Shown here: in pieces, positions 34,703-62,767 of the stretch
How positions within the stretch are numbered: the first letter of the stretch is position 1
Layout: each line of letters starts with the position of its first letter
Assembly (NCBI GenBank): GCA_964483785.1
Contig: CAZACW010000002.1
Span: forward strand, 16,666 to 80,665
Source of the DNA: an uncultured Planctomycetales bacterium
GTDB lineage: Bacteria; Omnitrophota; Gorgyraeia; Zapsychrales; Fredricksoniimonadaceae
DNA: 64,000 nt
Direction: 5' to 3'
Notes under the pieces: model-generated
Told to the model about the DNA's origin: nothing
Seen by the model: the letters and a program-made list of their open reading frames with translations, nothing else
Databases searched by the model: none
Translations under genes and position numbers: made by a program

Positions 34703-34728
34703 TATGCATTCGAGCGTAAGGAGTGAAG

Positions 34729-35706
34729 ATGCGTAAGGTCCTGATTACAGGGGCGGGGGGTTTTATCGGTTCGCATTTGACGGAACTCTGCGTGAAGCAG
34801 GGGGTCAAGGTGCGCGCCATGGTCCATTACAACGCGAAGAACCATTGGGGCTGGCTCGAGGATTCCCCGGTCAAAAACAAGATCGAGGTCGTCTGCGGCG
34901 ATGTGCGGGACTATGATTTTGTCTTTAATCAGCTTAAAGGCTGCGACACGGTCTTTCACCTGGCGGCCTTGATCGGCATTCCGTATTCCTATATTTCTCC
35001 CATGGCCTATATCAAGACCAACGTGGAAGGGACCTATAATGTCCTTCAAGCGGGCAAGGACAGGGGCACCAAGAATTTGGTCCTCACCTCGACGAGCGAG
35101 ACCTACGGGAGCGCGCAATATGTGCCCATCGACGAGAAGCACCCGGCCAATGCCCAGTCCCCTTATGCGGCCACCAAGGTCGCGGCTGACCAGCTGGCCT
35201 TGAGTTTCCATCGTTCCTTCGGCCTTCCGGTCAAGATCGTGCGGCCTTTCAATACCTATGGCCCGCGCCAATCCGCCCGGGCCATCATTCCCACCGTGAT
35301 CACCCAGATCCTCAACGGCAAAAACACCCTGCACTTGGGCAATCTGGGTCCGAGCAGGGACCTGACCTTTGTAGAAGACACCGCCAAAGGTTTTTGGGCC
35401 GCGGCCAAGGCGCCCTGTGCCGGCGAGGTGCTCAATCTTGGGATGAATGAGGAAATCACGGTCGCTGAATTAAGCCGGTTGATCGCAGGGCTGATGCAAA
35501 CAAAGATCCGCATCCGGCAGGAGAGGGTCAGGGTGCGCGCCTCTTCCAGCGAGGTCAGCCGGCTGCGCTGTGATAACCGCAAGATGAGAAGCCTTACGGG
35601 CTGGAAGCCGCAGTTCAGCCTGGAACAAGGCCTGCGCAAAACCATTGAATGGTTTAAAAAGCCCGGGACATTGTCCCTTTATAAGGCGGAATTGTATAAT
35701 GTCTAA
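34729..35706 (+). CDS. NAD-dependent nucleotide-sugar epimerase/dehydratase (extended SDR)
   Basis: ITGAGGFIGSH motif and a YAATK catalytic region. An SD (AGGAG) lies 5 nt upstream. Confidence 0.8.
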   Translation: MRKVLITGAGGFIGSHLTELCVKQGVKVRAMVHYNAKNHWGWLEDSPVKNKIEVVCGDVRDYDFVFNQLKGCDTVFHLAALIGIPYSYISPMAYIKTNVEGTYNVLQAGKDRGTKNLVLTSTSETYGSAQYVPIDEKHPANAQSPYAATKVAADQLALSFHRSFGLPVKIVRPFNTYGPRQSARAIIPTVITQILNGKNTLHLGNLGPSRDLTFVEDTAKGFWAAAKAPCAGEVLNLGMNEEITVAELSRLIAGLMQTKIRIRQERVRVRASSSEVSRLRCDNRKMRSLTGWKPQFSLEQGLRKTIEWFKKPGTLSLYKAELYNV

Positions 35707-36841
35707 ACCCATTGAAATGGATGCCCCTTGTCTGGGGGAGGCCGAGAAGAAATATCTGAGTAAGGCCATTGATTCCGGCTTTGTTTCGTCGGCCGGCCCT
35801 TTTGTCCCTGAATTTGAAGCCAAGGTGGCGGCCTTTTTAAAGGTCTCCTCAGCCGTGGCCCTGCAAAGCGGCACAGCCGCGATCCACATGGCCCTGGTGG
35901 CCGCAGGCATCGGACCAGGGGACGAGGTGATTGTGCCTTCCTTGACTTTCGCGGCGACCGTCAATCCCATTTTATATGTGGGCGCGGTGCCGGTGATCGT
36001 GGATGTTGATCCCGCGACATGGAATATCGATCCTGTCAAAATCAAGGCGGCCCTGACTAAAAAGACCCAGGCCATCATCCCAGTGCATGTCTACGGCAAT
36101 CCCTGCGCCATGGATGAAATCATGGGCCTGGCGGCCCGGCACGGGTTTGCCGTCATCGAAGATGCAACGGAAAGCCTGGGCGCGGAATTTTTGGGAAAAC
36201 CCGCCGGCACCTTCGGTGATTTCGGCTGTTTGAGTTTTAATGGCAATAAAACCATCACCACCGGGGGAGGCGGCATGCTCGTCGGACAAGAGACCCAGCG
36301 CCTGGAACATGTCCGTTACCTGGCCAATCAGGCCAAGGACAAGGTCCAGCCGGGCTTTCATGCGGAAATGGGATTTAATTACCGCATGACCAACATCGAA
36401 GCGGCCTTGGGCCTGGCCCAATGCGGGAACATCGAGGCTTTTCTGGCCCGAAAAAGGAATTTCAGAAAAATCTATGAAAAGGCCCTGTTGCCCGTCAAAG
36501 GGGTAGGTTTCCAGGATAAACTGGACAATGCTGAGCCAAGCTGCTGGCTGACCTGCCTGCGTCTGCCTCAAGCGGTTCCATTAGGCCCCTTGATGGAGGC
36601 CTTACGGCAGAAGCATATCCCCACCAGAAGGGTGTTCATGCCTTTGCCTCAGATGCCTTATTTGAAGACATATGCCAAGGAATGTCCCCAGGCACAGGAC
36701 ATTTTTGAACATGGCCTTTGCCTGCCGTCTTCAACCATGAACACAGAAAAAGATATTGAGCAGGCGGCTGAAATTATCCGAAAGGTGATTGAAACATGCC
36801 TTCCCCATGGGTCCCCTTGCGTTTCAACAAAAACAATTTGA
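35699..36841 (+). CDS. DegT-family sugar aminotransferase (fourth paralogue, LegC/PglE/PseC-like)
   Basis: GIGPGDEVIVPSLTF motif and a GNKTITTGGGG region. Its start overlaps the epimerase stop. Confidence 0.85.
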   Translation: MSKPIEMDAPCLGEAEKKYLSKAIDSGFVSSAGPFVPEFEAKVAAFLKVSSAVALQSGTAAIHMALVAAGIGPGDEVIVPSLTFAATVNPILYVGAVPVIVDVDPATWNIDPVKIKAALTKKTQAIIPVHVYGNPCAMDEIMGLAARHGFAVIEDATESLGAEFLGKPAGTFGDFGCLSFNGNKTITTGGGGMLVGQETQRLEHVRYLANQAKDKVQPGFHAEMGFNYRMTNIEAALGLAQCGNIEAFLARKRNFRKIYEKALLPVKGVGFQDKLDNAEPSCWLTCLRLPQAVPLGPLMEALRQKHIPTRRVFMPLPQMPYLKTYAKECPQAQDIFEHGLCLPSSTMNTEKDIEQAAEIIRKVIETCLPHGSPCVSTKTI

Positions 36842-37239
36842 CCAAGTGGATGTGGATGTGCCAGCATCACGAGCATTTGGTCTGCGGCCGCAAGGTGGAC
36901 ATAGGCGCCTTCACCTATATCAATGCCAAGCACGGGGTGCATTTGGGGGATGAGGTGCAAATCGGGTCTCACTGTTCCTTGTATTCCGTCTCATCTATCG
37001 ACGGCAAGAAGGGGCCCATTACAATCGGCAAAAATTCCAGGATCGGGTCGCACTGCACCGTGATGCCGGGGATCACCATCGGGGACAATGCGGTCATCGG
37101 CGCCCATTCCTTTGTGAATAAAGACATCCCCTCCAATGCAACCGCATGGGGCGTGCCGGCCAGGGTCCAAAATAAAAAGCAGGGCAAGGCCAAGAACCGT
37201 GACGGACGGCACAAAGCCAAGGACCGTGAAAGAGACTGA
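36796..37239 (+). CDS. Hexapeptide-repeat (left-handed beta-helix) sugar N-acetyltransferase (PglD/LegH-like)
   Basis: Tandem [LIV]G-x-x-x-x hexapeptide repeats (IGSHCSL...IGKNSRIGSHCTV...IGDNAVIGAHS). The start codon is uncertain between 36796 and 36853. Confidence 0.65.
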   Translation: MPSPWVPLRFNKNNLTKWMWMCQHHEHLVCGRKVDIGAFTYINAKHGVHLGDEVQIGSHCSLYSVSSIDGKKGPITIGKNSRIGSHCTVMPGITIGDNAVIGAHSFVNKDIPSNATAWGVPARVQNKKQGKAKNRDGRHKAKDRERD

Positions 37240-38318
37240 TGGAGCGCTATAAAAAAATACAGATCAGACCGGGCTTCAGCATCAAACAGGCCTTTCAGCA
37301 CATGGATGCCATGGGTGAAAAGACCCTCGTGGTCATTGATGAAGGGCAGGCGATCCTAGGCACGGTCTCGGACGGCGATATCCGCCGCTGGATATTGAAA
37401 GGCCGGGAATTAAATGACAAGGTGACCTGTGTCCTCAATCCCCGTCCCGTACTGTTGAAGGAGGGCTTTGCCGGGCAAGAGGCGAAGGACCTGTTTTTAA
37501 AACACAAGATCGAATGCCTCCCGGTGGCGGATGCCGCCAACCGGATGGTGTCCTGCGTGTTTTGGGCCGACCTGTTTGAAAAAAAGCAGATTGTCTCCCA
37601 TGCCCTGAAGCTGCCCGTGGTGATCATGGCCGGCGGCGAGGGCGTCCGGCTGCACCCTTTCACCAAGATATTGCCCAAACCCTTGATGCCCATCGGCGAG
37701 AAGCCGATCATTGAAGTGATCATCGACCGTTTTCTGGAATACGGCTGCGAAGATTTTTACCTGTCCCTGAATTATAAATCGAATTTGATCAAGGCGTATT
37801 TCAATGATTTTGAGCACCGGTATAAAATCAATTATGTGCAGGAAAGCAAGCCTTTGGGCACGGCCGGGGGCCTTCATCTGTTAAGAAACAAGATCAAAAA
37901 GACCTTGTTCGTCAGCAATTGCGACATCCTCATCGAGGCGGATTACGCGGACGTCTTGAAATTCCACCGCCAGAAGAACAACAAAATCACCCTTGTCACC
38001 TCCATGAAAAATATGACCATCCCTTACGGGGTCTGCCGCATCCAGAACGGCGGGATTTTAAAAGGCATCCGCGAAAAGCCTGAATATGATTTCCTGGTCA
38101 ATACCGGGATGTATGTGCTGGAGCCATCGGTCCTGAAACAAATCCCTTCCAGCCGCTATTACAATATTACGGATTTGATCAATCATTATCTTTCCCTCGG
38201 GGAAAAAGTCGGGGCCTATCCGGTATCGGAAAAGTCCTGGCTGGACATCGGGCAGATAGAAGTGCTGCATGAAGCGCTGAAAAAATTTGAGCTCAGGGAA
38301 AGGGCGGCGGATGTCTAA
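37239..38318 (+). CDS. CBS-domain sugar-phosphate nucleotidyltransferase (PtmE-like)
   Basis: An N-terminal CBS pair is followed by a GGxGxRL nucleotidyltransferase motif (MAGGEGVRLHP). Confidence 0.75.
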   Translation: MERYKKIQIRPGFSIKQAFQHMDAMGEKTLVVIDEGQAILGTVSDGDIRRWILKGRELNDKVTCVLNPRPVLLKEGFAGQEAKDLFLKHKIECLPVADAANRMVSCVFWADLFEKKQIVSHALKLPVVIMAGGEGVRLHPFTKILPKPLMPIGEKPIIEVIIDRFLEYGCEDFYLSLNYKSNLIKAYFNDFEHRYKINYVQESKPLGTAGGLHLLRNKIKKTLFVSNCDILIEADYADVLKFHRQKNNKITLVTSMKNMTIPYGVCRIQNGGILKGIREKPEYDFLVNTGMYVLEPSVLKQIPSSRYYNITDLINHYLSLGEKVGAYPVSEKSWLDIGQIEVLHEALKKFELRERAADV

Positions 38319-39315
38319 GGTCCTGATCATTGCCGAGGCCGGCGTTAATCACAATGGGTCACTGAAATCCGCCTTGAAATTGGTGGACGCGGCGGCCATG
38401 GCCGGTGCGGATGCCGTCAAATTCCAGACCTTTGAGGCCCATGCCGTTGTTTCCAAATTCGCGCCGAAGGCCCGCTACCAGATTCAAGCCACAGGCAAGG
38501 AGGGCAATCAGCTGCAGATGATCCAACAACTGCAGCTGGGTCCCGAGGCGCATAAGATCCTGCAGGCCCATTGCCGCCGAAGGAAAATCATGTTTCTTTC
38601 CACGCCTTTTGATGCGGCCAGCATTGATCTGTTAAACGGGCTGGGCCTAAAGATCTTTAAAATCCCTTCAGGAGAAATCACCAATCTTCCCTATTTGCGC
38701 AAAATCGGGGCCTTAAGGAAAAAGATCATCCTCTCGACGGGAATGGCGGATCTGCGGGAAATCCGGGAAGCGCTCAGGATATTGACGGCGGCCGGCACCA
38801 GGAAAGCGCAGATCACCCTGCTGCATTGCAACAGCGCCTATCCATCGCCATTTAAGGATGCGAATCTTTTGGCCATCCCCCGGATGAAATCAGCCCTGGG
38901 CATGGAGATCGGCTATTCTGATCATACCTTGGGGATCGAAGCGGCCGCGGCAGCCGTGGCCCTGGGCGCTGTCATTATCGAAAAGCACCTGACCCTTGAT
39001 AAGCGCTTACCGGGTCCAGACCACAAGGCCAGCCTTGACCCGGCTGAGTTGAGGGCCTTGGTCAAAGCTGTCCGGAATGTCGAATCCGCGCTGGGCTCCG
39101 GCATCAAAAGGCCTTCACCGTCGGAAACGGCCAATATCACCCATGTCCGCAAGAGCATCATTGCCTCCAGGGACATCGGCAGGGGGGAACGGTTCAATGA
39201 AGAAAACCTGACGGTCAAAAGGCCAGGCACCGGCCTTAGCCCCATGCAATGGGACAGGGTCATAGGCCGCAAGGCCGTCAAAGCGTTTCATCAAGATGAA
39301 TTGATCAAGCTATAA
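38311..39315 (+). CDS. neuB: Nonulosonic-acid synthase (NeuB/LegI/PseI family) with a C-terminal SAF domain
   Basis: The N-terminal KVLIIAEAGVNHNGSL segment matches the family signature. The C-terminal antifreeze-like domain is present. Confidence 0.85.
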   Translation: MSKVLIIAEAGVNHNGSLKSALKLVDAAAMAGADAVKFQTFEAHAVVSKFAPKARYQIQATGKEGNQLQMIQQLQLGPEAHKILQAHCRRRKIMFLSTPFDAASIDLLNGLGLKIFKIPSGEITNLPYLRKIGALRKKIILSTGMADLREIREALRILTAAGTRKAQITLLHCNSAYPSPFKDANLLAIPRMKSALGMEIGYSDHTLGIEAAAAAVALGAVIIEKHLTLDKRLPGPDHKASLDPAELRALVKAVRNVESALGSGIKRPSPSETANITHVRKSIIASRDIGRGERFNEENLTVKRPGTGLSPMQWDRVIGRKAVKAFHQDELIKL

Positions 39316-39319
39316 GCCT

Positions 39320-40507
39320 ATGCACAAAAGAACTATCGCGGTTGTCACCGGTTCCAGGGCCGATTACGGCCATCTGTATTGGCTGTTGCGTGCCATTGAG
39401 GAAGATCCGCGTCTCAAACTGAAGATTTTGGTGACTGGACCGCATCTGTCCAGTACCTTTGGCTCGACGTGGAAACAGATCACCCGGGATGGCTTCAAGA
39501 TTGCCGCCAAAATTCCTGTACTAAGCCGGGATAATTCCATGGCCTCCACAGCCGCTGCTGTCGGCCGCGGATGCATCGGCTTCAGCCGTGTCCTTGACAA
39601 GGACCGGCCGGACATGCTGGTGGTCTTGGGCGACCGGTTTGAAATTTTGGCGGCTGTTGTTGCGGCGTATATCCTGAACATCCCCATTGTCCATCTGCAT
39701 GGGGGGGAAGCCACACAGGGCGTCATGGACGAAGGGATCCGTCATGCCATCACCAAGATGTCTTCCCTGCACGGAACCGCGACTAAGACCTACAGGCATA
39801 GGGTCATTCAAATGGGGGAAGATCCACGACGGGTTTTTAACCTGGGGGCCGCAGGCTTAGACCATATCTATCGGATGGATTTGCTCAGCAAGGATGCGTT
39901 GTACCAAGGTTTGGGCCTGGATCTGCGGGAAAAAACCCTGCTTGTCACCTTCCATCCCATGACACGGGAGCGTTCTTCCACTGCCAAGCAGGTCCAACAA
40001 TTGCTTTTGGCCGTGGCCTCCAGCGGCTGCCAGGCCGTGTTCACCAAGGCCAATGCAGACCCTGAGGGCCTGATCATCAACCGTGCCCTGGCCCTCTTTT
40101 GCCGGAGGGACCCATCACGGTATAAATTCATTGATAATATGGGTCAGCTTCTCTATTATAGTGCGCTTAAACATATGGATGCCATGGTGGGCAATTCTTC
40201 CAGCGGCATGGTGGAAGCCCCTTCCTTTCATATGCCGGTGGTCAATATCGGTGACCGTCAGGACGGCAGGATCAAGGCCGCCAATGTGCTCGATGTGGAT
40301 TGCGTGAGTGCACAGATCACAAGGGCCATCCGACTGGCTTTTAGCCCAAGGTTCAGGCGTTCATTAAAATCCCTAAAAAATCCTTATGACCGCTTTCGGG
40401 ACGGCAAAACCAGCCTGCGCCTTAAGGAAATATTGCGCAAGCTCAGCCTGGATGAGAGCTTGATCAAGAAAAAATTTTATGCCATAAAGAATTTCAGCGT
40501 CGATTGA
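39320..40507 (+). CDS. neuC: UDP-N-acetylglucosamine 2-epimerase, hydrolysing type (NeuC/LegG)
   Basis: The N-terminal IAVVTGSRADYG segment is characteristic of the NeuC family. The product is 395 aa. Confidence 0.8.
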   Translation: MHKRTIAVVTGSRADYGHLYWLLRAIEEDPRLKLKILVTGPHLSSTFGSTWKQITRDGFKIAAKIPVLSRDNSMASTAAAVGRGCIGFSRVLDKDRPDMLVVLGDRFEILAAVVAAYILNIPIVHLHGGEATQGVMDEGIRHAITKMSSLHGTATKTYRHRVIQMGEDPRRVFNLGAAGLDHIYRMDLLSKDALYQGLGLDLREKTLLVTFHPMTRERSSTAKQVQQLLLAVASSGCQAVFTKANADPEGLIINRALALFCRRDPSRYKFIDNMGQLLYYSALKHMDAMVGNSSSGMVEAPSFHMPVVNIGDRQDGRIKAANVLDVDCVSAQITRAIRLAFSPRFRRSLKSLKNPYDRFRDGKTSLRLKEILRKLSLDESLIKKKFYAIKNFSVD

Positions 40508-40512
40508 GGAGC

Positions 40513-41388
40513 ATGATGAAAAACATCAGGATCATTCCGCGTCTGGACATCAAGGGGCCCAATTTGGTCAAGGGCATCCATTTGGAAGGCCTGCGTGTCT
40601 TGGGCCGGCCCCAGGACTTTGCCCGGCATTATTATGAGGCCGGCGCGGATGAATTGATTTATATGGACGTGGTGGCCAGCCTTTATAACCGCAACAGCCT
40701 GCATGATATCATCACCAAGACCGCCAAGGAAATTTTCATTCCCTTGACAGTGGGAGGAGGATTGAGAACCATCGAGGATATCCGCCGGGTCTTAAGGGCC
40801 GGTGCGGACAAGGTTTCATTAAACACAGCGGCCATAAGTCATCCGGATTTTATCCGTGAGGCCGCGCGCATGTTCGGCTCCTCCACCATTGTCGTGGCCA
40901 TTGAGGCCATCCGTCAGCCCGATGGCCGGTACCTGGCGTATACAGACAATGCCCGGGAATACACAGGGGTGGAAGTGCTGGCCTGGGCCGGGAAGGTCCA
41001 GGAGCTGGGCGCCGGTGAAATCCTTTTGACCTCGGTGGACCGTGAAGGCACGGGCACAGGATATGACCTGGAGCTGATCAGGTCCGTGGCTGAAGCTGTC
41101 TCCATTCCGGTCATTGCCTCCGGCGGGCCAGGGCAATTGAACGATATCCAGAAGGCCATCCTGCAGGGAAAGGCGGATGCCGTGGCGGTTGCCTCCATGC
41201 TCCATTACGAAACCATCAAGCATCTGCGGGCGGATTTGGATTCCTATCAAGAGGGCAATGTGGAATTTTTAAAAAGCGGCCGGGAATTCACCAAATGCCG
41301 GCCCTGCTCCATTTTGCAGATCAAGCAATATTTAAACCAGCAGGATATTCCCTGCCGGTATCAGCCTAAGGAAGCTGTTCATGTTTGA
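40513..41388 (+). CDS. HisF-like cyclase subunit (WbuZ-type, amidine formation on N-acetyl sugars)
   Basis: TIM-barrel HisF motifs ([20 protein letters not shown]). It is located next to the HisH-like and WbuX-like genes. Confidence 0.75.
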
Positions 41389-42064
41389 AGCGGACAAGCA
41401 TAAGGTCGCCATCGTTGATTACGGGCTGGGCAATTTGTTCAGCGTCCAGTATGCCTGCCGTGCGGTCGGTCTGGAGTGCATCATCACCCATGACAGGGAA
41501 CTGATCCAAAGGTCCGCAGGCATCATCCTTCCGGGGGTCGGGGCCTTTGGAGATGCCATGGCCAATTTGAAGAAACTGGATTTGGTCGGCGTGCTCAAGG
41601 ATTGCGTGCACATGCACAAGCCCTTTTTCGGCATCTGTTTGGGCATGCAGTTATTGCTTTCCCAAAGTGAGGAATTCGGGATTCATCCGGGGCTGGACAT
41701 CATCCGCGGCAAGGTGATCAGGTTTGACCAGGGTCGAGACCAGCGGGCTGTCAAGATCCCTCAAGTGGGGTGGAACCGCATCCGCATCAATCCCGGCCAT
41801 CCCGGGGCCAAGGAAGGACTGCTCAAGGGAATACACGATGAGGAGTTTATGTATTTTGTCCATTCTTATTATGCCGTCCCGGAAGATGAAAATTTGGTCC
41901 TGACTAAGACCTCGTACGAAGGCATTGCGTATTGTTCCTCCTTCCTGAAAGATTCGGTCTTGGCCGTGCAATTTCATCCGGAAAAGAGCGGGTCCGAGGG
42001 GTTAAAATTTTATCAAAATTGGGCCCATCTGGTCCATGCCGGCAAGGAGCTGGTCAACCCATGA
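41381..42064 (+). CDS. HisH-like glutamine amidotransferase subunit (WbuY-type)
   Basis: Class I GATase with the catalytic GICLGMQ cysteine motif and a C-terminal HPE triad. Confidence 0.8.
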   Translation: MFEADKHKVAIVDYGLGNLFSVQYACRAVGLECIITHDRELIQRSAGIILPGVGAFGDAMANLKKLDLVGVLKDCVHMHKPFFGICLGMQLLLSQSEEFGIHPGLDIIRGKVIRFDQGRDQRAVKIPQVGWNRIRINPGHPGAKEGLLKGIHDEEFMYFVHSYYAVPEDENLVLTKTSYEGIAYCSSFLKDSVLAVQFHPEKSGSEGLKFYQNWAHLVHAGKELVNP

Positions 42065-43269
42065 CAACAGCATTGGAAGTCAAATACGGCCTGCCGGCGA
42101 CGGTGGTTTTTTGCAAGCACTGCGTGATGTCCAACCAGCGGCCGACCTCGGCGGTGGAATTCAAGCACACGATCAACAGCCGCAAGAACACCCTGCATAT
42201 CCATGAAGACGGGATATGTGATGCCTGCTCTTATGCAAAAGAGAAGCTTAAGATCGACTGGAAAAAGCGCGAGGAAGAGCTGCTGCGGCTGCTGGACAAA
42301 TACCGCCGCAAGGATGGGCATTATGACTGCCTTGTGCCCGGCAGCGGCGGCAAGGACAGCGCCTATCAGGCCCATGTGCTCAAATACAAGTACGGGATGC
42401 ATCCTTTGACCGTCACCTGGTCGCCCCTGATGTATACGGATTACGGCTATAAGAATTTCAGGAATTGGCTGGATATCGGCGGTTTTGACAATATCAGCTT
42501 TTACCGCAACGGCAAGGTGATGAAATTATTGACAAGGCTTGGCATCGAAAATCTTTTGCATCCTTTTCAGACCTTTATTTTGGGGCAGAAAAACCTGGGC
42601 CCCAAACTGGCTGCCCAATTCGGCATCCCGCTGGTGTTTTACGGGGAGTGCGAGGCTGAATACGGCAATCCCATTGCGGACAACACCCGCTCCTTGAGGG
42701 ACAAATCCTACCATACCTTCAAAAACATCGATGACGTTTACCTGGGAGGCATTTCCGTCAGGGAGTTGAAGGAGCGCCACCACATCGACATGGAAGAGCT
42801 GATGTGCTTTCTGCCGGCGGACGCGGCCCAGCTGGAAAAAGCGGCCGTGGAGGTCCATTATTTGGGCTATTACCTGAAATGGACGCCGGAGGAGGTCTAT
42901 TATTATGCCGTGGAAAATACCGGATTCCAGGCGCGGCCTTTCCGGTCCCAGGGCACCTACAGCAAATACAACAGCATTGATGACAAAATCGATGATCTGC
43001 ACTACTATACCTTATACATCAAATTTGGGCTTGGCCGGGCCACCTATGACGCTTCCCAGGAAATCCGCAACAACCACATCACCCGTGAAGAAGGGGTGGC
43101 CCTGGTCAAGAAATTCGACGGTGAATTTCCGGACAGATATTTCCGCGAGGTCATGGAGTATATCGGCATGAAGCCGGAAAAGTTCATGGAGCTCTGCGAC
43201 CAGTTCCGCTCGCCGCATCTCTGGGAGCAGGTTGACGGTCAATGGAAATTACGTTACACTGTTTGGTAA
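42061..43269 (+). CDS. N-acetyl sugar amidotransferase (WbuX/PseA-like PP-loop ATPase)
   Basis: PP-loop SGGKDS motif and a length of about 400 aa. Its stop overlaps the HisH-like gene. Confidence 0.75.
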   Translation: MTTALEVKYGLPATVVFCKHCVMSNQRPTSAVEFKHTINSRKNTLHIHEDGICDACSYAKEKLKIDWKKREEELLRLLDKYRRKDGHYDCLVPGSGGKDSAYQAHVLKYKYGMHPLTVTWSPLMYTDYGYKNFRNWLDIGGFDNISFYRNGKVMKLLTRLGIENLLHPFQTFILGQKNLGPKLAAQFGIPLVFYGECEAEYGNPIADNTRSLRDKSYHTFKNIDDVYLGGISVRELKERHHIDMEELMCFLPADAAQLEKAAVEVHYLGYYLKWTPEEVYYYAVENTGFQARPFRSQGTYSKYNSIDDKIDDLHYYTLYIKFGLGRATYDASQEIRNNHITREEGVALVKKFDGEFPDRYFREVMEYIGMKPEKFMELCDQFRSPHLWEQVDGQWKLRYTVW

Positions 43270-43284
43270 GATGAGGAGGGGACC

Positions 43285-43458
43285 ATGGAAGAACAATTGC
43301 TTAAAGGTAATTTCAAGGTCAAACATCCCGTGAAGCAGAAGCCCAAGAAGGACGCTCCGACCTTTTTGGAAGAATACAAGAAAAAGGCCATGGGCTCGAT
43401 CGGAGGCAGCATGGTCTACATGGAGCGCGGCCAGATGACCTGGGACGGAGACCAATAG
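43285..43458 (+). CDS. 57-aa small protein (MEEQLLKGNFKVKHPVKQKPKKDAPTFLEEYKKKAMGSIGGSMVYMERGQMTWDGDQ)
   Basis: A perfect SD (GAGGAGGGG) lies 5 nt upstream of the ATG. The ORF sits in the 192-nt gap of an otherwise overlapping gene array and is below the ORF-track cutoff. Confidence 0.5.
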   Translation: MEEQLLKGNFKVKHPVKQKPKKDAPTFLEEYKKKAMGSIGGSMVYMERGQMTWDGDQ

Positions 43459-43461
43459 CCC

Positions 43462-44484
43462 ATGAAAGCCCAGGCCGTTGGCCCTTTTGAGCGCGTTGTT
43501 GAAGAAATAGCCCAGGTGGGGTTCAAGCACCACCGCCAGACGCTGCTGGAGCATGCCCTTATCAACGCGCCGCAGGCTAAGCAATCCATCAAGGACCTGC
43601 CTGACTTAAAAGGCCCGAAGGCCCGATCAGCTATCGTCATCAGCGCCGGACCCAGCGTCCACCGTCAACACTCTTTAAAGCGCATCAAGGACTTAAACTA
43701 TCCGGGCACGCTGATCTGTGTCGACGGAGCTTTTATCGCGGCCTTGAAAGCCGGCCTCATCCCGGATTTTGTCATGGCCTTGGACCCCCATCGCCGCAGG
43801 CCGGTGCGCTGGTTCGGGGACCATGATTTTGAGAAAAATACGGCGGATGATGATTATTTTGCCCGCCAGGATTTGGACGTCGAATTTCGCAAAAATACCA
43901 TCGCCCAGAACAAGCTCCACATTGAGCTGGTGAATACTTACGGCCCGAAAACCAAGGCCATTGTGGCTTCCTGCGCAGCGGCCAACGTCGTCGGGCGCAT
44001 CCAAGAAAGCGGCATGGACGCCTACTGGTGGAACCCCTTGGTGGATGATCCGCACACCCCGGGAAGCATCACCCGCGCCATGTATGATATCAACCGCCTG
44101 CCCTGCCTGAATACCGGAGGCAATGTCGGCACCGCGGCCTGGGTCTTTGCGGATTCTTTCTTAAAAATCCCTGAGATCGCCCTGGTCGGCATGGATTTCG
44201 GCTATTACGGGGACCTGCCCTTCGAGAAGACCCAGACCTTTTATGAGCTGCACCAGTATCTGCAGAACGCGGAATCCGTGGAGTCCTTGTTCGTGGAATA
44301 TGACTTTCCGTTGACCGGCGAAACATTTTATACGGACCCGACGTATTATTGGTACCGGAAAAATTTTCTGGAACTTTTTTTGCTGGCGCGCGGCCGCACG
44401 TATAATTGCACCGAAGGCGGCACCCTCTTTCATGAGAAGATGCCCTGCCTTTCCCTTGACGATTTTATCCAACGCCACCTTTAA
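43462..44484 (+). CDS. DUF115 (MptE-like) domain protein, a candidate Maf-type nonulosonic-acid transferase
   Basis: The pattern AIVISAGPSV...LICVDGAF...DFVMALDPH matches the DUF115 core shared by Campylobacter motility-accessory-factor (Maf) proteins. Confidence 0.45.
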   Translation: MKAQAVGPFERVVEEIAQVGFKHHRQTLLEHALINAPQAKQSIKDLPDLKGPKARSAIVISAGPSVHRQHSLKRIKDLNYPGTLICVDGAFIAALKAGLIPDFVMALDPHRRRPVRWFGDHDFEKNTADDDYFARQDLDVEFRKNTIAQNKLHIELVNTYGPKTKAIVASCAAANVVGRIQESGMDAYWWNPLVDDPHTPGSITRAMYDINRLPCLNTGGNVGTAAWVFADSFLKIPEIALVGMDFGYYGDLPFEKTQTFYELHQYLQNAESVESLFVEYDFPLTGETFYTDPTYYWYRKNFLELFLLARGRTYNCTEGGTLFHEKMPCLSLDDFIQRHL

Positions 44485-44496
44485 CCCAGGGGACCC

Positions 44497-46080
44497 ATGG
44501 CCAAAATCCTGATGATCAATCCAGTGGTGAGGGAAGAAGACGATCCCAAGCATATCCCCTACGGCATTGCCCTGCTGGCGGCCATTGCCGTCGAAAAAGG
44601 GCATCTCGTCCAGATTTACGACGAGAACGCCTGGCGCAAAGGCCTGGAGGTGGTGGAGCAGGTCTGCCGGGCCGATGATTGGGACGTGATCGCCATCGGC
44701 GGATTGACGACAACCTACGGTTCCATCAAGAAAATCCTTCAAATATGCCGCAAGGTCTGTCCCCAGGCCTTCATCGTGGCCGGCGGCGGATTCTTGACCA
44801 GCATGCCCAAGGAAATGCTCTCCTGGCTGCCGGAAATCGATATCGGCATCATGGGAGAGGCTTTTGCCACATGGCCTGATATCCTTGAAAAGATAGACCG
44901 CAAGGACCTTGATTTCTCCAAGACCTTAGGGGTCTGTTTCCGCGCTCAAGACGGCAAGGTCACCATCACCAACGTGCGGTCCAATATCCATGACCTGGAT
45001 GTCCTGCCGTATCCGGCCTGGGACCTGCTGCCCTTGGAGATATACTTTAAAAATTCCAGCACCACCTACTCCGAAGCCGGCTTTCTGGCCAAGCGGCGCA
45101 TCGATGTGATGGGCTCCTTAGGCTGCAGCCTGATCTGCAAATTCTGCTGGCATTTGGGTACCACCGGCGACATGGTGGTGGAAAAAGACGAGAAGGGCGA
45201 GAATGATGTCCGTTTCACCTACGGCCGCAATATCCGCTATCACAGCCCGCGCTACATTGTCAACATGGTCAAGACCCTCAGGGACAAATACCAGGTGGAT
45301 TTTGTCAGTTTTATCGATGAAAATTTGATGACTATGGACGTGGCCAGCGGCCGCACCTGGCTTAAAGAACTGTGCGCCTTGTGGATCGAGGAAGGGCTGC
45401 AGCCGACGTCCCGGCGCGACGGTGTCCCGGACAATGAGAACAAGGGGGGCGTGTTCTGGGCCGGGACCAGCCATGCCAGCCTTTCCAACAAGGAAATCCT
45501 GCAGATCATGTACAAGGCCGGCTGTTCCCATCTGGTCTACGGCATTGAGTCCTTTGATCCGGTGATCCTCAAAAATTTGGGCAAGGGCGTCAACCAAAAC
45601 CATAATTTGAACGCCCCGCGGATCTGCATGGAAACCGGCATCATCCCCATCCCCAACATCATCATTGGCTTCCCCCTGGAAACATTCCAAAGCGTGCGCA
45701 CCACCATCGAATGCCTGATCAAACTGGGCATTCACTGCAAGCCGCATTTTGCCACACCCTACCCAGGCTCCGAGTGGTATTATGCCTACAAGGAGTCGAT
45801 CCTGGAGCAATACAACGGCGATCTGGAGAAGTTCATCATGGACTTGGGCGATGCCTCCAAAATTTCAGCTGTGATTTCCCATCAATTCTCGCCCATGCAG
45901 CTTTTGGGCCTGCAGCAGATTGTGATGCAGCGGGACCTGAGGCTGTTGGCATTGGCGGAAAAGCATTGGGGCAAGGCTGATGAGCTGGTGCGGCCCCTGG
46001 CCGTGCCCCGGGAGTCCTTCAACATTGTCAAGGCCAAGGTCAAGGCGCCGATGGAAGAAGAGACCAAGGCTTCCTTATAA
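44497..46080 (+). CDS. Cobalamin-binding (class B) radical-SAM enzyme (second copy)
   Basis: An N-terminal B12-binding Rossmann region is followed by a CxxxCxxC cluster (GCSLICKFCWH). The product is 527 aa. Confidence 0.7.
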   Translation: MAKILMINPVVREEDDPKHIPYGIALLAAIAVEKGHLVQIYDENAWRKGLEVVEQVCRADDWDVIAIGGLTTTYGSIKKILQICRKVCPQAFIVAGGGFLTSMPKEMLSWLPEIDIGIMGEAFATWPDILEKIDRKDLDFSKTLGVCFRAQDGKVTITNVRSNIHDLDVLPYPAWDLLPLEIYFKNSSTTYSEAGFLAKRRIDVMGSLGCSLICKFCWHLGTTGDMVVEKDEKGENDVRFTYGRNIRYHSPRYIVNMVKTLRDKYQVDFVSFIDENLMTMDVASGRTWLKELCALWIEEGLQPTSRRDGVPDNENKGGVFWAGTSHASLSNKEILQIMYKAGCSHLVYGIESFDPVILKNLGKGVNQNHNLNAPRICMETGIIPIPNIIIGFPLETFQSVRTTIECLIKLGIHCKPHFATPYPGSEWYYAYKESILEQYNGDLEKFIMDLGDASKISAVISHQFSPMQLLGLQQIVMQRDLRLLALAEKHWGKADELVRPLAVPRESFNIVKAKVKAPMEEETKASL

Positions 46081-47025
46081 TTGTCGACCATGAACATCGT
46101 GATCTTTGGTTTGGGTTCAATCGGCCGGCGCCATGCCGGGATTTTGCGCAAGCATTTTTCCCATGATCTGGCTGCCTTTCGCAGCCGCAGGTCAGGAGCC
46201 CGGCGCCCTGTGGCGGGGATCAGAGAAATCTATACATGGCAGGAGCTGGAAGCTTTCAGGCCTGATGCGGCCTTTATCACCAACCCGACGTATTTGCACA
46301 TTCCAACCGCCCTGCGCTGCGCCGGCTTAGGCATGCACCTGTTCATTGAAAAACCTCTTTCCCACTCTCTGGAGGGGATCGCCCGGCTGGGCCGAATTTG
46401 CCGTCGCAAGAAACTGAGCTGTTATGTGGCCTACGGCCTGCGTTTTCATTCGGTGGTCCAGCGCCTGCGCCAAAAAATTAAGGGCAAAAAAATTGCGCAT
46501 GTGCGCATCGTCTGCTCATCCTATCTGCCGGACTGGCGTCAGGGGCCGCAGGCCAGGCAGGCCTACTCAGGCAAGGCCAAGGAGGGAGGGGGCGTGCTCT
46601 TGGATCTGTCCCATGAATTCGATTATATCCGGTATTTATTCGGTGATTTTAAGATCAGGTCCGGCGTCTTTGCCAGGGCCGGCAAGGTTTCTGTGGATGC
46701 TGAGGACTTTGCGGATGTGTTAATGACTGCGTCCCGCGCGCCGCACATCAATATGCATATCAATTATCTAAGCCGCAGTCAGGAACGGCGCATCGTGATT
46801 GACCATGATAAAGGCACCATCACCGCAGACTTGCTGCGCCAAACGCTGGAGATCAGGGAAGGCCGCAGGCTGAAGATTGAGCGGCTCAAAGGAAGCAGGG
46901 ATGATTATTTGAAAAAACAGACGAGGTATTTTTTCGGCCATATCGGCCGGCCTGGCCTTATGAATGATTGGCAGGAAGCCGGGGATACCTTGGCCAAGAT
47001 TTTAGAGTTCAAGCGCCATGCGTGA
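46081..47025 (+). CDS. Gfo/Idh/MocA-family NAD(P)-dependent oxidoreductase (PtmF-like)
   Basis: IFGLGSIGRRH Rossmann motif. An alternative ATG lies at 46090. Confidence 0.75.
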   Translation: MSTMNIVIFGLGSIGRRHAGILRKHFSHDLAAFRSRRSGARRPVAGIREIYTWQELEAFRPDAAFITNPTYLHIPTALRCAGLGMHLFIEKPLSHSLEGIARLGRICRRKKLSCYVAYGLRFHSVVQRLRQKIKGKKIAHVRIVCSSYLPDWRQGPQARQAYSGKAKEGGGVLLDLSHEFDYIRYLFGDFKIRSGVFARAGKVSVDAEDFADVLMTASRAPHINMHINYLSRSQERRIVIDHDKGTITADLLRQTLEIREGRRLKIERLKGSRDDYLKKQTRYFFGHIGRPGLMNDWQEAGDTLAKILEFKRHA

Positions 47026-47734
47026 AAAAATCCTTTTGACCATATGTGCCAGGAAGGGCTCAAAAGGGGTCAAGAACAAAAACATCAGGGACCTTTGCGG
47101 CCGGCCTTTGATCGCCCATTCCATCCGTCAGGCCTTGTCCTGGGGCAAGGCGGACAAGGTCATTTGCACGACGGATTCCGAGGCCATTGCCGCCATAGCC
47201 CGCCAATGCGGGGCCGAGGTGCCTTTTATGAGGCCGGCGCATTTGGCCACGGACTCCATCGGCAAGCTCCCTGTCCTGCAGCATGCCCTGCGCGAGACCG
47301 AGCGCCTGACCGGCGAACGGTTTGATGTTTTGCTGGACTTAGACAGCACTGCTCCGGTGAGGACCGTCCAGGACATAGACAAGGCCCTGAAGATTTTCAA
47401 GCAAAGCAAGGCCAAGTCCGTCTTCAGTGTGACCCCATGCCGCAAAAATCCCTATTTCAACATGGTGGAGACCGATGCAAGAGGGTATTATCGTCTGGTC
47501 AAGAAATTGAAAAATCCTTTTATGAGCCGGCAAGCCGCGCCCAGGGTCTATGACCTGAACGCCTCCATTTATGTGTACAGCCGCCAATACCTTTTGGATC
47601 CCAAAACCAAGACACCGGTGTCCGACAGGTCCAAGGTGCTGGTGATGGAGGAATGGTCGGCCTTTGACATTGACCATGAGTCTGATTTTCAATTTATTGA
47701 ATTTTTGGTCAACAAAGGATTGGTCAAACTATGA
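47018..47734 (+). CDS. neuA: CMP-nonulosonic-acid synthetase (acylneuraminate cytidylyltransferase family; NeuA/LegF/PseF)
   Basis: The N-terminal ICARKGSKGVKNKN segment matches the family signature. The product is 238 aa. Confidence 0.8.
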   Translation: MREKILLTICARKGSKGVKNKNIRDLCGRPLIAHSIRQALSWGKADKVICTTDSEAIAAIARQCGAEVPFMRPAHLATDSIGKLPVLQHALRETERLTGERFDVLLDLDSTAPVRTVQDIDKALKIFKQSKAKSVFSVTPCRKNPYFNMVETDARGYYRLVKKLKNPFMSRQAAPRVYDLNASIYVYSRQYLLDPKTKTPVSDRSKVLVMEEWSAFDIDHESDFQFIEFLVNKGLVKL

Positions 47735-48519
47735 TCGATTACCGCCGCATGTTTTCGCTCGCCGGCAAGGCCGTGGTGGTGACCGGAGGCTGCGGCTTGC
47801 TGGGCCGTGAAATCGTGACTGCCTTGGCCCAGGCCGGGGCCAGGGTCGTGATCGCGGACATTAATGCCAAGCAGGGACGGCAGCTGGCCAAGATATTGGG
47901 GCAGGAAGGCCTGAAGGTCTTTTACTGTCCTTTGGACATCACGGCTATCAAAGATCTCAAGGCCAACATGCAAACGCTCTTCCGCCGGCAGGGCCCCATT
48001 CACGGCTGGATCAATTGCGCCTATCCCAGGACCAAGGATTGGGGGGCCAAGGCCGAGCATATCCGCTCAAGGTCCTGGCAAAAAAACATCGACATGCATT
48101 TGAATGCGTATGCCTTAAGTTCCCTCTATGCCGCCCAGGCCCTCAAGAAAACCAAAGGATGCATCATCAATTTAGGGTCCATTTACGGGTCAGTGGGTCC
48201 GGATTTCAGCATCTATGAAGATACCAAGATGACCATGCCTGCCGCCTATGCAGCGATCAAGGGCGGCATCGACAGCATGGGCCGGTACCTGGCTTCGTAT
48301 GTCGGGCCCTTTGGCGTCAGGGTGGCCACGGTCTGCCCCGGCGGAATTTATGACGGTCAAGATCCCTCCTTCGTCAAGAAATACGCGGCCAAAACCTGCC
48401 TCAAGCGCATGGCCAAGGCCCAGGAAGTGGCCTCGGTCGTGGCCTTTCTCGTCTCAGACGCTGCTTCTTATATTACAGGGGCCACCATTATGGTGGATGG
48501 GGGTTGGACAGCTGTTTAG
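47731..48519 (+). CDS. Short-chain dehydrogenase/reductase (PtmA-like)
   Basis: VVVTGGCGLLG glycine-rich motif and a YAAIKGG catalytic YxxxK region. Confidence 0.75.
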   Translation: MIDYRRMFSLAGKAVVVTGGCGLLGREIVTALAQAGARVVIADINAKQGRQLAKILGQEGLKVFYCPLDITAIKDLKANMQTLFRRQGPIHGWINCAYPRTKDWGAKAEHIRSRSWQKNIDMHLNAYALSSLYAAQALKKTKGCIINLGSIYGSVGPDFSIYEDTKMTMPAAYAAIKGGIDSMGRYLASYVGPFGVRVATVCPGGIYDGQDPSFVKKYAAKTCLKRMAKAQEVASVVAFLVSDAASYITGATIMVDGGWTAV

Positions 48520-50108
48520 GCGCCGGTGAAGTGGTCGGTGGCCAGGTTGCCGGTCTCCCGGTCGATGCAATACCAAATGCCGTTGTAATTGGTGGTCTGG
48601 TGCTCGAACCAGATCACGCCTGCCTCACGGATATGCGGCCAGCAATCCTTGAAAATATCGTCCCCGTGGATCACCGCAACTCCATTTAAAACACGGATCG
48701 GGTAATGGTTGATCACATGCTCGGTGCCGGTGTCTGTAAAGATCCGCAGGGTGATGGTATTGTCCGGGTTGGTGGCGCAGCCGCCGGCCGTGATAATGGC
48801 GTAATCATTGCGGAAGGCCTTGAAAATCGGCGCCATTTTCAGGCAGCGGTAGGATTTCGGCTGCGGGTTGGAATCATTGTACAGGCCATAGGATGATTCG
48901 GTGTGGGTCTGGTCAGCCAGGCGATTTGAGCCCCGGTAATACACATGCACGTAACAGATCGGTTTGACGGCAAATTCATTCACATCACGCTTGAATTCCA
49001 CCACACAATTGACGCTGCCCTGGATGTCTTCCTTTGCGAAAACCTTGGCCAGATCGCATCCTGATTGATCATCCTGAAAAACGACGTCCCGGCTGGAAAT
49101 CAGCGCGCCGTCTTCCGTGAACAGCTTCAGGGTCATGGCCTCTACGGGGAAACCGATTTCATCCTCGCTGATGCGCAGCAGGGGCGCGTTGTGTTTAAAA
49201 TTCGGTATGTAAAAGCCGGTGGTGCAAGGATGAGGATGACGGTTGGCGGATGGCGTATTTTTGATATTGCGCCGGTTGCTGTTGCAATTGTCATGCCAGA
49301 TGGCCAGGGGAATGCCGTCTCCGTCATGGATGATGCAAAAGCCGTTGGCCCCTTTCAAGGGGGATTTAGTCTGGGCCACGGTGAACAATGCCTTGGGGCC
49401 GACAGCCTCAATGTCCTGCCGGGAACCGGCGAAATTGGACAGATAGGCCATGTGGCCGTCGGGCAGATAACCGCGGTAACAGAGGCTCGTGCGCGGCAAA
49501 TAGGACTTTAACGGCGCTGGGATGGAATGTACGCCGGCCATCAGCCCCTTGGCCTGGTCATGGAAAAAGACAAAGAACCTAAATTCGTTTTCCGGGGTCT
49601 TGAGGCGCGGATGAAAGACTTCTAAAAGCACGATACCTTGCTCCGGCAGGGCCGCGGCATCAGCCTCATGGCCGATAGTATTGAAATATTTCACTTCATT
49701 GGGCTTGAACACATACTGTTTGGACCAAAAATGCTCATTTTCCTTCATGATGGAGAGGCGGATCAAAAGAGGGTCCCGGATGCTGTAATTGCGCTGGCAA
49801 AAATTAAACAGCAGGATATGGGTGATGCCTTTTCGGAAAGGGACATAGGCACTGACAAAGGCCGAAGCAGCATCAGGCACCATATCTTCGGGACTGGTCT
49901 GCCCGTAGTAGGCCGAGAACAGGGTGGGCATGAATTTTTCCGGCGGGATGATCTTGGCTTGAGGATATTGTTTGAGGTAATGCGCCTGCAGGACCCGGTT
50001 GTAATAGGGCGGGCAGGCCTTGAAGTATTTGACGGCCAGCTCATTGGTTTTTTCCAGGCCGATCCATTTCGAGAGCAATTCGATTTTTGACATAAAGATT
50101 TCCTTCAA
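48516..50108 (-). CDS. Large hypothetical protein (530 aa) on the opposite strand. I recognise no domain.
   Basis: An uninterrupted ORF convergent with the upstream array, with an AT-rich promoter region on its 5' side. No motif is recognised. Confidence 0.5.
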   Translation of the reverse strand: MKEIFMSKIELLSKWIGLEKTNELAVKYFKACPPYYNRVLQAHYLKQYPQAKIIPPEKFMPTLFSAYYGQTSPEDMVPDAASAFVSAYVPFRKGITHILLFNFCQRNYSIRDPLLIRLSIMKENEHFWSKQYVFKPNEVKYFNTIGHEADAAALPEQGIVLLEVFHPRLKTPENEFRFFVFFHDQAKGLMAGVHSIPAPLKSYLPRTSLCYRGYLPDGHMAYLSNFAGSRQDIEAVGPKALFTVAQTKSPLKGANGFCIIHDGDGIPLAIWHDNCNSNRRNIKNTPSANRHPHPCTTGFYIPNFKHNAPLLRISEDEIGFPVEAMTLKLFTEDGALISSRDVVFQDDQSGCDLAKVFAKEDIQGSVNCVVEFKRDVNEFAVKPICYVHVYYRGSNRLADQTHTESSYGLYNDSNPQPKSYRCLKMAPIFKAFRNDYAIITAGGCATNPDNTITLRIFTDTGTEHVINHYPIRVLNGVAVIHGDDIFKDCWPHIREAGVIWFEHQTTNYNGIWYCIDRETGNLATDHFTGA

Positions 50109-50219
50109 TAAGGCGGGGTTGATTTAATTGTAGTACACTTTTTTTTAAATGTAAAAATATAATTCGCTTTTAAGTTGCGACCTTTTAAATTTCTTGTTTT
50201 TCTGTTAATATCAACGCCT

Positions 50220-54818: not shown

Positions 54819-54819
54819 C

Positions 54820-62149: not shown

Positions 62150-62150
62150 C

Positions 62151-62759: not shown

Positions 62760-62767
62760 GAGTTGCG

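Follow-up and report, generated by a model that had tools for sequence, protein, structure and literature searches.

The sequence analyzed here, referred to as the window, is a 64,000-nucleotide stretch of contig CAZACW010000002.1 (positions 16,666 to 80,665; assembly GCA_964483785.1) from an uncultured bacterium deposited as Planctomycetales and placed by GTDB in the Omnitrophota. Our subject is a gene array for the synthesis of a legionaminic-type nonulosonic acid (NulO), a sialic-acid-like sugar, together with a three-gene cassette embedded within it. A sugar-biosynthesis island occupies the + strand from ~9.6 to 63.4 kb of the window, and inside it positions 34723-48519 form a tightly packed + strand array of 15 genes (Table 1). 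Because neighboring genes of this array overlap by 4-8 nucleotides (nt) or are separated by 15 nt or less, it looks like a single transcription unit; promoter and terminator scans gave signals near background and were uninformative. Family assignments come from Pfam and NCBIfam profile searches, in which bit scores were set against the curated cutoff of each model, and some gene calls in the array (e.g., 40513-41388 and the 402-aa WbuX) follow those of L001, a metagenome contig of 6.9 kb with identical sequence. Every gene named in the original prediction, which had been made from the sequence without database searches, was recovered on the + strand at its predicted position, with family matches at E-values from 1e-14 to 1e-143. 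That prediction went on from the 2-epimerase to the oxidoreductase, cytidylyltransferase, and short-chain dehydrogenase that indeed follow, but passed over six genes at 40513-46080, and the genome it described as high in GC has a moderate GC content of ~0.54 here. Neither tRNA genes nor flagellar genes, flagellin included, were found in the window.

Table 1. The 15 genes of the packed array, with window coordinates and the family evidence for each.
Feature	Coordinates	Strand	Family evidence
LegB-like NAD-dependent nucleotide-GlcNAc 4,6-dehydratase	34723..35706	+	TIGR04180 454 bits; Pfam GDP_Man_Dehyd/Epimerase
LegC-family pyridoxal phosphate (PLP) aminotransferase	35699..36841	+	TIGR04181 386 bits; DegT_DnrJ_EryC1 2e-102
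Left-handed beta-helix acetyltransferase, 147 aa, presumed 4-N-acetyltransferase (LegH role)	36796..37239	+	Hexapep 5e-14
CBS-pair + sugar-1-phosphate nucleotidyltransferase (PtmE-like)	37239..38318	+	NTP_transferase PF00483 1e-38; CBS 9e-07
LegI-type nonulosonate synthase, SAF domain, 334 aa (P0001)	38311..39315	+	NeuB PF03102 1.8e-95; SAF PF08666 4e-10
Hydrolysing NDP-sugar 2-epimerase (LegG/NeuC-type)	39320..40507	+	TIGR03568 441 bits, cutoff 236
HisF-like cyclase subunit (WbuZ/AglZ type)	40513..41388	+	TIGR03572 WbuZ 276 bits, cutoff 300; NF038364 AglZ/HisF2 209
HisH-like glutaminase subunit	41381..42064	+	TIGR01855 201 bits, cutoff 105
WbuX-family N-acetyl-sugar amidotransferase (PseA/PtmG-type), 402 aa	42061..43269	+	TIGR03573 345 bits, cutoff 203
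Conserved 57-aa protein	43285..43458	+	Kept position in at least 73/75 related loci
MptE-like/DUF115 protein, 340 aa	43462..44484	+	PF01973 5.6e-18
Class-B (B12-binding domain) radical SAM enzyme, 527 aa	44497..46080	+	PF02310 48 bits + PF04055 47 bits
GFO/IDH/MocA oxidoreductase (PtmF-like)	46081..47025	+	PF01408/PF22725
CMP-nonulosonate synthetase (LegF-like)	47018..47734	+	CTP_transf_3 1e-18
Short-chain dehydrogenase (SDR; PtmA-like)	47731..48519	+	SDR; NF050062, PRK09186

Enzyme families for each core step of a route to a cytidine monophosphate (CMP)-activated sugar of the legionaminic type are present, as had been proposed. The dehydratase and aminotransferase that head the array have LegB and LegC as their best models, although both stay under the curated cutoffs (475 for TIGR04180, with a runner-up model at 179; 420 for TIGR04181, with PseC at 239); the aminotransferase open reading frame (ORF) opens at 35645 and its likely ATG lies at 35699. 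The third upstream gene had been likened to LegH, and here the resemblance is partial: the protein matches the NeuD/PglB/VioB model at positions 111-202 only, which is the C-terminal beta-helix part, and Pfam and NCBIfam searches found no PglD_N domain in it, whereas the LegH-type genes of related loci encode 208-213 aa with PglD_N plus Hexapep. The LegH function may be supplied by this non-orthologous acetyltransferase. The CBS-domain nucleotidyltransferase has the architecture and length of the PtmE-type genes of Plesiomonas and of the complete genome L086, and the PtmF-like oxidoreductase falls in the same position class as PtmF in both. Matches to PF03102, TIGR03569 (NeuB_NnaB; 475 bits, cutoff 400), and PF08666 identify the synthase as the predicted NeuB-family enzyme with an SAF domain and not as another aldolase. 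NCBIfam offers neither a LegF-specific model nor one that separates LegI from NeuB; the LegF-like protein reached 131 bits with the PseF model (cutoff 206), and its best matches in the PDB are the CMP-N-acetylneuraminic acid (Neu5Ac) synthetases 6ifd and 1eyr. The PtmA-like dehydrogenase scored 168 bits with NF050062 (PtmA; cutoff 350) and 236 bits with PRK09186 (cutoff 255).

Which NulO such a set of genes would make can be approached from several sides. Compared with proteins of solved structure, the synthase is closer to SpsE of B. subtilis (1vli, 212 bits) than to PseI (179) or meningococcal NeuB (170), and the sps genes are assigned to a legionaminic-acid pathway (PMC7439481). Homologues of the synthase at 62-65% identity carry the JGI label N,N'-diacetyllegionaminate synthase. 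The epimerase matches A. baumannii LegG (5zlr, annotated as the guanosine or uridine diphosphate (GDP/UDP)-N,N'-diacetylbacillosamine 2-epimerase of Acinetobacter) with 297 bits at 1.8e-87, far ahead of human GNE (160 bits, 1e-45). The operon is led by a dehydratase, an aminotransferase, and an acetyltransferase, from which a 5,7-diamino sugar of the legionaminic type would follow; since the available models do not split LegI from NeuB, the Leg call for the synthase itself rests on this context. We weighed whether the product might instead be pseudaminic acid or a true sialic acid (Neu5Ac), a reading that could draw on the NCBI-type names "N-acetylneuraminate synthase" and "UDP-GlcNAc 2-epimerase" and on the fact that PseF is the sole NCBIfam nonulosonate model matched by the cytidylyltransferase. 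However, the synthase scores only 298 bits with the PseI model, under its cutoff of 340; equivalents of PseB, PseG, and PseH are missing, with PseB reaching merely 67 bits on the dehydratase; and a NeuC-type epimerase, for which the pseudaminic route has no counterpart, is present. The Neu5Ac route, for its part, needs no 4,6-dehydratase, C4 aminotransferase, or N-acetyltransferase, and yet LegB- and LegC-family genes head the operon and the epimerase lies far nearer to LegG than to GNE. We therefore regard both of these products as very improbable, and the predicted legionaminic-type 5,7-diamino nonulosonate, activated with CMP, as well supported by gene content.

Downstream of the epimerase, the genes for a HisF-like, a HisH-like, and a WbuX-family protein are adjacent and overlap one another, as expected of a three-component glutamine amidotransferase. 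Such trios are also known from the WbuX/WbuY/WbuZ O-antigen systems (PseA with HisH2/HisF2-type partners), which act on a hexosamine uronic acid, whereas the substrate here would be a nonulosonate. In Campylobacter jejuni, PtmG makes an acetimidoyl group on legionaminic acid (SugarBase preprint, 10.64898/2026.04.20.719630). Because WbuX belongs to the family of PtmG, an acetamidino derivative such as Leg5Am7Ac is predicted for the window.

The C. jejuni CMP-legionaminic acid pathway, reportedly established by Schoenhofen et al. in 2009, is said to comprise LegB, LegC, LegH, LegG, LegI, and LegF with PtmE, PtmF, and PtmA, and the enzyme families of every core step are the same in the window. 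Both loci also share the adjacencies legB-legC, legI-legG, and ptmF-legF-ptmA and contain a WbuX-family amidotransferase. Unlike C. jejuni, the window gives the amidotransferase its own HisH/HisF pair, has a truncated acetyltransferase of 147 aa, lacks flagellin, a full-length Maf, and PtmH, and adds the small-protein/DUF115/radical-SAM cassette; most of its genes also score under the cutoffs of equivalog models. To our knowledge, C. jejuni does not have the cassette. The original prediction had claimed both the gene content and the gene order of the Campylobacter region, and of these the content holds at the level of families. The order departs from that of C. jejuni (Cj1319-Cj1332), which the SugarBase preprint documents only in part and in which ptmE is taken to follow legG: in the window ptmE precedes legI and the amidotransferase comes after legG. 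Further, the shared architecture is not the notable feature that had been suggested, because PtmA, LegF, PtmF, PtmE, LegH, LegI, LegG, LegC, and LegB also make up the Leg region of Plesiomonas shigelloides, to which VF_0143-0147 of Vibrio fischeri and the elg cluster of E. coli are the best matches (PMC4481668). The nine-gene set, which forms proven Leg loci, lies in a single block in these three species, as does L086, a complete genome of 4.1 Mb, and the set recurs in a close metagenomic relative of the window. In contrast to the window, the three published loci encode LegH at full length and have neither the acetamidino trio nor the cassette. Judged from these gene sets and from its recurrence in many phyla, the nine-gene architecture is widespread and ordinary.

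Only the cassette makes the locus unusual. It consists of the 57-aa ORF, the DUF115/MptE-like gene, and the B12-type radical S-adenosylmethionine (SAM) gene, and it sits between the WbuX and PtmF-like genes. Relatives of the radical SAM protein number more than 1,400; the best 120 are 64-86% identical to it, and identity is 52-86% across at least 12 phyla. A genome scan yielded 80 loci with relatives of the cassette, in Planctomycetota, Omnitrophota, Spirochaetota (Leptospira), Elusimicrobiota, Bdellovibrionota, Myxococcota, Alpha-, Beta-, and Gammaproteobacteria, Nitrospinota, Latescibacterota, Rokubacteria, Chloroflexota, and Acidobacteriota; the nearest are in metagenome-assembled genomes (MAGs) of Planctomycetales and Omnitrophota. 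Magnetospirillum sp. ME-1 and Paramagnetospirillum caucaseum also carry it, and a protein search with the P. caucaseum enzyme returned Magnetospirillum sp. ME-1 and a Magnetospirillum MAG, and not Magnetospirillum gryphiswaldense MSR-1, among its best 120 matches. Further culturable carriers are Methylobacter tundripaludum SV96, Thalassotalea or Colwellia spp., Leptospira ryugenii, and Planctobacterium marinum. Gene order within the cassette is all but invariant in 82 related loci from at least 12 phyla. In each of the 76 loci with enough sequence to tell, the radical SAM gene directly follows the DUF115 gene, both on one strand and usually 0-60 nt apart, and at least 73 of 75 loci have a small ORF directly ahead of the DUF115 gene.

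The surroundings of the cassette were surveyed by clustering all ORFs around 83 loci without prior assumptions. A CMP-transferase is the commonest neighbor (53/83 loci) and directly adjoins the cassette in 35 of 70, followed by NeuB (32 of the 83 loci), PtmE-like (29), and NeuC (27) genes; no universal partner gene beyond the cassette itself emerged among these clustered loci. Where at least 8 kb of sequence was available on both sides, 34 of 36 loci had one or more nonulosonate-pathway genes. Neighboring synthases are of the Neu/Leg type in 35 of 41 cases and of the PseI type in one. Linkage of the cassette to CMP activation is thus shown. The open-access literature yielded no paper that puts a radical SAM or cobalamin enzyme into nonulosonic, legionaminic, or pseudaminic acid synthesis; searches pairing legionaminic or pseudaminic with radical SAM, and nonulosonic with cobalamin, gave incidental co-occurrence only. 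At one Leptospira ryugenii locus (L004), a small 4Fe-4S ferredoxin gene at 12315-12590 lies directly 3' of the CMP-transferase of the cassette, and its product might supply electrons to the radical SAM enzyme. Genes for a formyltransferase and a PIG-L deacetylase are also present at this locus, as they are in the NulO cluster of Kuenenia (SugarBase preprint).

The radical SAM enzyme has its CxxxCxxC motif at C210/C214/C217, and these cysteines are invariant among its relatives. An AlphaFold2 model (predicted local distance difference test [pLDDT] score 82.5) has TsrM, OxsB, AprD4, MgmA, CysS, and TokK as its nearest folds, with template modeling (TM) scores of 0.54-0.62 at 13-17% identity. The NCBIfam models of named subfamilies are matched far below their cutoffs (HpnJ, 100 bits against 578; BchE, 83 against 481), and no membership in a characterized class-B subfamily was found with these models. 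From its sequence and modeled fold, the protein is a class-B-type enzyme of a new subfamily. Like GenK, Fom3, AprD4, OxsB, TokK, CysS, and TsrM, it combines an N-terminal B12-binding Rossmann domain with a radical SAM barrel bearing CxxxCxxC; unlike any of these, it is always paired with a DUF115 and a 57-aa protein. C-methylation is the commonest chemistry of class-B enzymes. Fom3, which methylates a CMP conjugate, is genomically linked to the Fom1 cytidylyltransferase, just as the enzyme of the window stands beside a cytidylyltransferase, and GenK lengthens a sugar chain through radical methylation.

The DUF115 protein belongs to a nucleotide-binding-fold family common to the archaeal pterin pyrophosphokinase MptE and the Maf glycosyltransferases, with which it shares the PF01973 segment and its GPS and IPD motifs. 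Its family profile matches MptE (8sd5) at 3e-10 and the Magnetospirillum Maf (5mu5) at 1e-4, in the N-terminal GPS...IPD segment only, and similarity to either protein stops within ~80 residues; against full-length Maf, hhalign gave a probability of 35% over 73 columns. Compared with Maf proteins, which have ~600 aa or more, it is half as long, lacks Maf_flag10_N, and is not beside flagellin, so that a protein of 340 aa with PF01973 as its only domain, in a window with no flagellin, is not a typical Maf. A single-sequence structure model had a pLDDT of 33 and was unusable. Long DUF115 homologues that could have been taken for fusions to the radical SAM enzyme owe their extra length to inteins: five distant MptE-like homologues from outside the window (P0411, P0441, P0446, P0459, and P0480), each of 750-850 aa, are interrupted by inteins of the LAGLIDADG type. 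The insertion sites coincide with, or lie close to, the conserved GPS and GGN.G motifs, and this marks the motifs as functionally critical.

The 57-aa protein has an N-terminal LKGNF, a charged linker of variable length, and a GGS-h-h-[FY]-V...W motif, in which GGS is invariant and followed by a hydrophobic strand and the tryptophan is near-invariant. It matched no Pfam or NCBIfam family at E-values up to 10. Two clades, GGSMV[YF]VER and GGSIAFV[AS]KK, track two clades of the radical SAM enzyme, and one database protein (P0370) is a natural fusion of the small protein with DUF115. A role as a carrier protein was considered and set aside, given the low-complexity linker and the lack of an associated phosphopantetheinyl transferase (PPTase) or adenylating gene.

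Drawing these elements together, we consider it likely that the array is a Leg-type CMP-nonulosonate operon for a surface glycan, with a predicted acetamidino layer and putative further tailoring by the cassette at or after the CMP stage. The gene set was established by homology and the order of reactions was adopted from the published C. jejuni pathway. On that basis, the PtmF-like, PtmA-like, and CBS-domain nucleotidyltransferase proteins would supply a pool of nucleotide-activated N-acetylglucosamine (GlcNAc), which LegB would dehydrate at positions 4 and 6, LegC would aminate at C4, and the small beta-helix acetyltransferase would N-acetylate. The LegG-type epimerase would then strip the nucleotide and invert C2, the LegI-type synthase would condense the product with phosphoenolpyruvate, and the LegF-type enzyme would add CMP. 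WbuX, HisH, and HisF, as judged by family membership, would convert one N-acetyl into an acetamidino group, as in Leg5Am7Ac. In a second layer of tailoring, the cassette would work at or after the CMP-sugar stage, with the DUF115 protein and its small partner binding the nucleotide-sugar and the radical SAM enzyme modifying an unactivated carbon, most likely by C-methylation; this proposal draws on the linkage of the cassette to the cytidylyltransferase, on the analogies with Fom3 and GenK, and on known tailoring of NulOs at the CMP level. Such tailoring is documented (SugarBase preprint), and CMP-linked ulosonic acids with a ten-carbon backbone, to which no genes are assigned, occur in Magnetospirillum gryphiswaldense (PMC8157484; SugarBase preprint, 10.64898/2026.04.20.719630). 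We also considered whether the cassette might N-methylate the acetimidoyl group, in the role of PtmH, and rejected this because WbuX, HisH, and HisF co-occur with it in only ~20 of 83 loci.

Several observations weigh against this interpretation. The models for LegB, LegC, PtmA, PseF/LegF, and WbuZ all remain under their curated cutoffs, so that no gene among them can be certified as an equivalog; the acetyltransferase is shorter than is typical; and PgmL and GlmU were not found in the window. Legionaminic acid and its 4- or 8-epimers, and likewise a GDP and a UDP carrier, look the same at the level of sequence. The best sequence-level match of the radical SAM family profile among solved structures is AprD4 (6e-09), a cobalamin-free sugar diol dehydratase, and OxsB (ring contraction) and TsrM and MgmA (methylation of amino acids or proteins) are equally close in fold. 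Finally, at the L006 locus the cassette is 68-86% identical, whereas the adjoining synthase and CMP-transferase are only 34-36% identical, a pattern equally in keeping with a self-contained system whose target is its own small protein.

The last of these points leads to an explanation for the cassette that we think possible but doubtful, in which the 57-aa protein would be a substrate or scaffold, the DUF115 protein would place a NulO on the serine of GGS in the manner of Maf, and methylation of the peptide, or of the sugar attached to it, would fall to the radical SAM enzyme. The small protein travels and diverges together with both partner enzymes in two matching clades, is fused to one of them in P0370, and has, ahead of its invariant GGS, a segment A-L-x-x-L-G-G that resembles a double-glycine leader; however, the likeness to a precursor of ribosomally synthesized and post-translationally modified peptides (RiPPs) ends with the GG itself, since the "core" that follows is conserved across phyla and not hypervariable. 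The 83 loci show no protease, C39-ABC exporter, or other RiPP gene as a regular neighbor of the cassette, and the ABC exporter encoded in the window is without a peptidase domain. Maf proteins share the DUF115 domain and O-glycosylate serine or threonine with NulOs, which would suit a transferase role, but the likeness to Maf is confined to the nucleotide-binding segment, and Planctobacterium has, besides the cassette, a separate full-length Maf next to flagellin, so that the destination of the sugar there is flagellin. For the radical SAM enzyme, peptide chemistry is suggested by TsrM, a tryptophan methylase, and MgmA, a protein glutamine methylase, among its near folds, by weak NCBIfam matches to RiPP C-methyltransferases, and by the much better conservation of the L006 cassette relative to the adjoining sugar genes.

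It is also conceivable, though in our judgment unlikely, that the radical SAM enzyme is not a methyltransferase and performs on the sugar either an AprD4-type dehydration or deoxygenation or a ring contraction of the HpnJ/OxsB type, with the DUF115 protein as a kinase-like activator. The profile match to AprD4, the position of AprD4 and OxsB among the top folds, and the best NCBIfam match, which is to HpnJ, an amino-sugar ring-contraction enzyme, could all be cited for such chemistry, and the DUF115 profile does lie nearer to the pyrophosphokinase MptE than to Maf. These similarities are remote, however, with identities of 13-17% and bit scores 5-8 times under the family cutoffs; most characterized class-B enzymes are methylases; and legionaminic-type sugars, from what is generally known of their structure, have no vicinal diol of the kind on which AprD4 acts. 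Among the roles considered for the cassette, we tentatively suggest that it is an undescribed, phylum-spanning system that tailors CMP-NulOs by adding carbon and stands behind the C10 ulosonic acids of Magnetospirillum, or else, and equally new, that it builds a NulO-glycosylated, radically modified small protein.

Genes on either side of the array bear on the fate of the sugar. Directly 5' of legB are genes for an ABC exporter of the HepA/MsbA type (32930-34702) and a glycosyltransferase of the TIGR04372 family (31595-32917), and because these two adjoin legB, the sugar seems more likely to be exported as part of a lipid-linked or polymeric glycan than to glycosylate flagellin. Four large ORFs near the operon, at 48516-50108 (- strand; 530 aa), 50175-52364 (729 aa), 52386-54185 (599 aa), and 54757-56418 (553 aa), are candidate transferases or polymerases for the sugar. 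None of the four has a significant Pfam or NCBIfam family even at E-values up to 1; the 599-aa ORF alone shows a weak match, to TIGR04326 ("surface carbohydrate biosynthesis"), and the 729- and 599-aa genes have counterparts of like size and position in the locus of the metagenomic relative.

Farther downstream, 56453-63445 holds a second CMP-sugar module, with a SAM methyltransferase, a HisC-like class I/II aminotransferase, two GFO/IDH/MocA oxidoreductases, a zinc-ribbon methyltransferase-like protein, a GmhA-like SIS isomerase, a fructose-6-phosphate aldolase/transaldolase, and a KdsB-like cytidylyltransferase that exceeds its model cutoff (NF003952, 246.6 bits; cutoff 193). The methyltransferase, the aminotransferase, the KdsB-like gene, and the two oxidoreductases are syntenic in the metagenomic relative, whose locus sequence ends before the SIS and aldolase genes. 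One possibility for the product of this module is a modified octulosonic acid or another ulosonic acid. Upstream, 10112-31613 is a large block for the tailoring of amino and deoxy sugars, which contains a second B12-binding radical SAM protein (720 aa), a SPASM radical SAM protein, a TylC3-type sugar C-methyltransferase, three DegT aminotransferases, a split transketolase, an HldE-like kinase/nucleotidyltransferase, and several SAM methyltransferases. A sulfotransferase gene in the same block adjoins those for adenylylsulfate (APS) kinase and CysQ, which suggests a sulfated glycan.

Taken alone, the Leg operon is a further environmental member of a well-mapped pathway. The interest of the locus lies in the embedded cassette, with its strict order, wide and, for the radical SAM enzyme, unusually high conservation, tie to CMP activation, and small protein that belongs to no family, and which offers a concrete candidate for the CMP-ulosonic acids with a C10 backbone reported by two mass-spectrometry studies. 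Sialic-acid-like sugars of bacteria shape phage, immune, and surface interactions; if the proposed role is correct, the known chemistry of these sugars would be extended, and cobalamin radical SAM enzymes would gain a new class of substrate.

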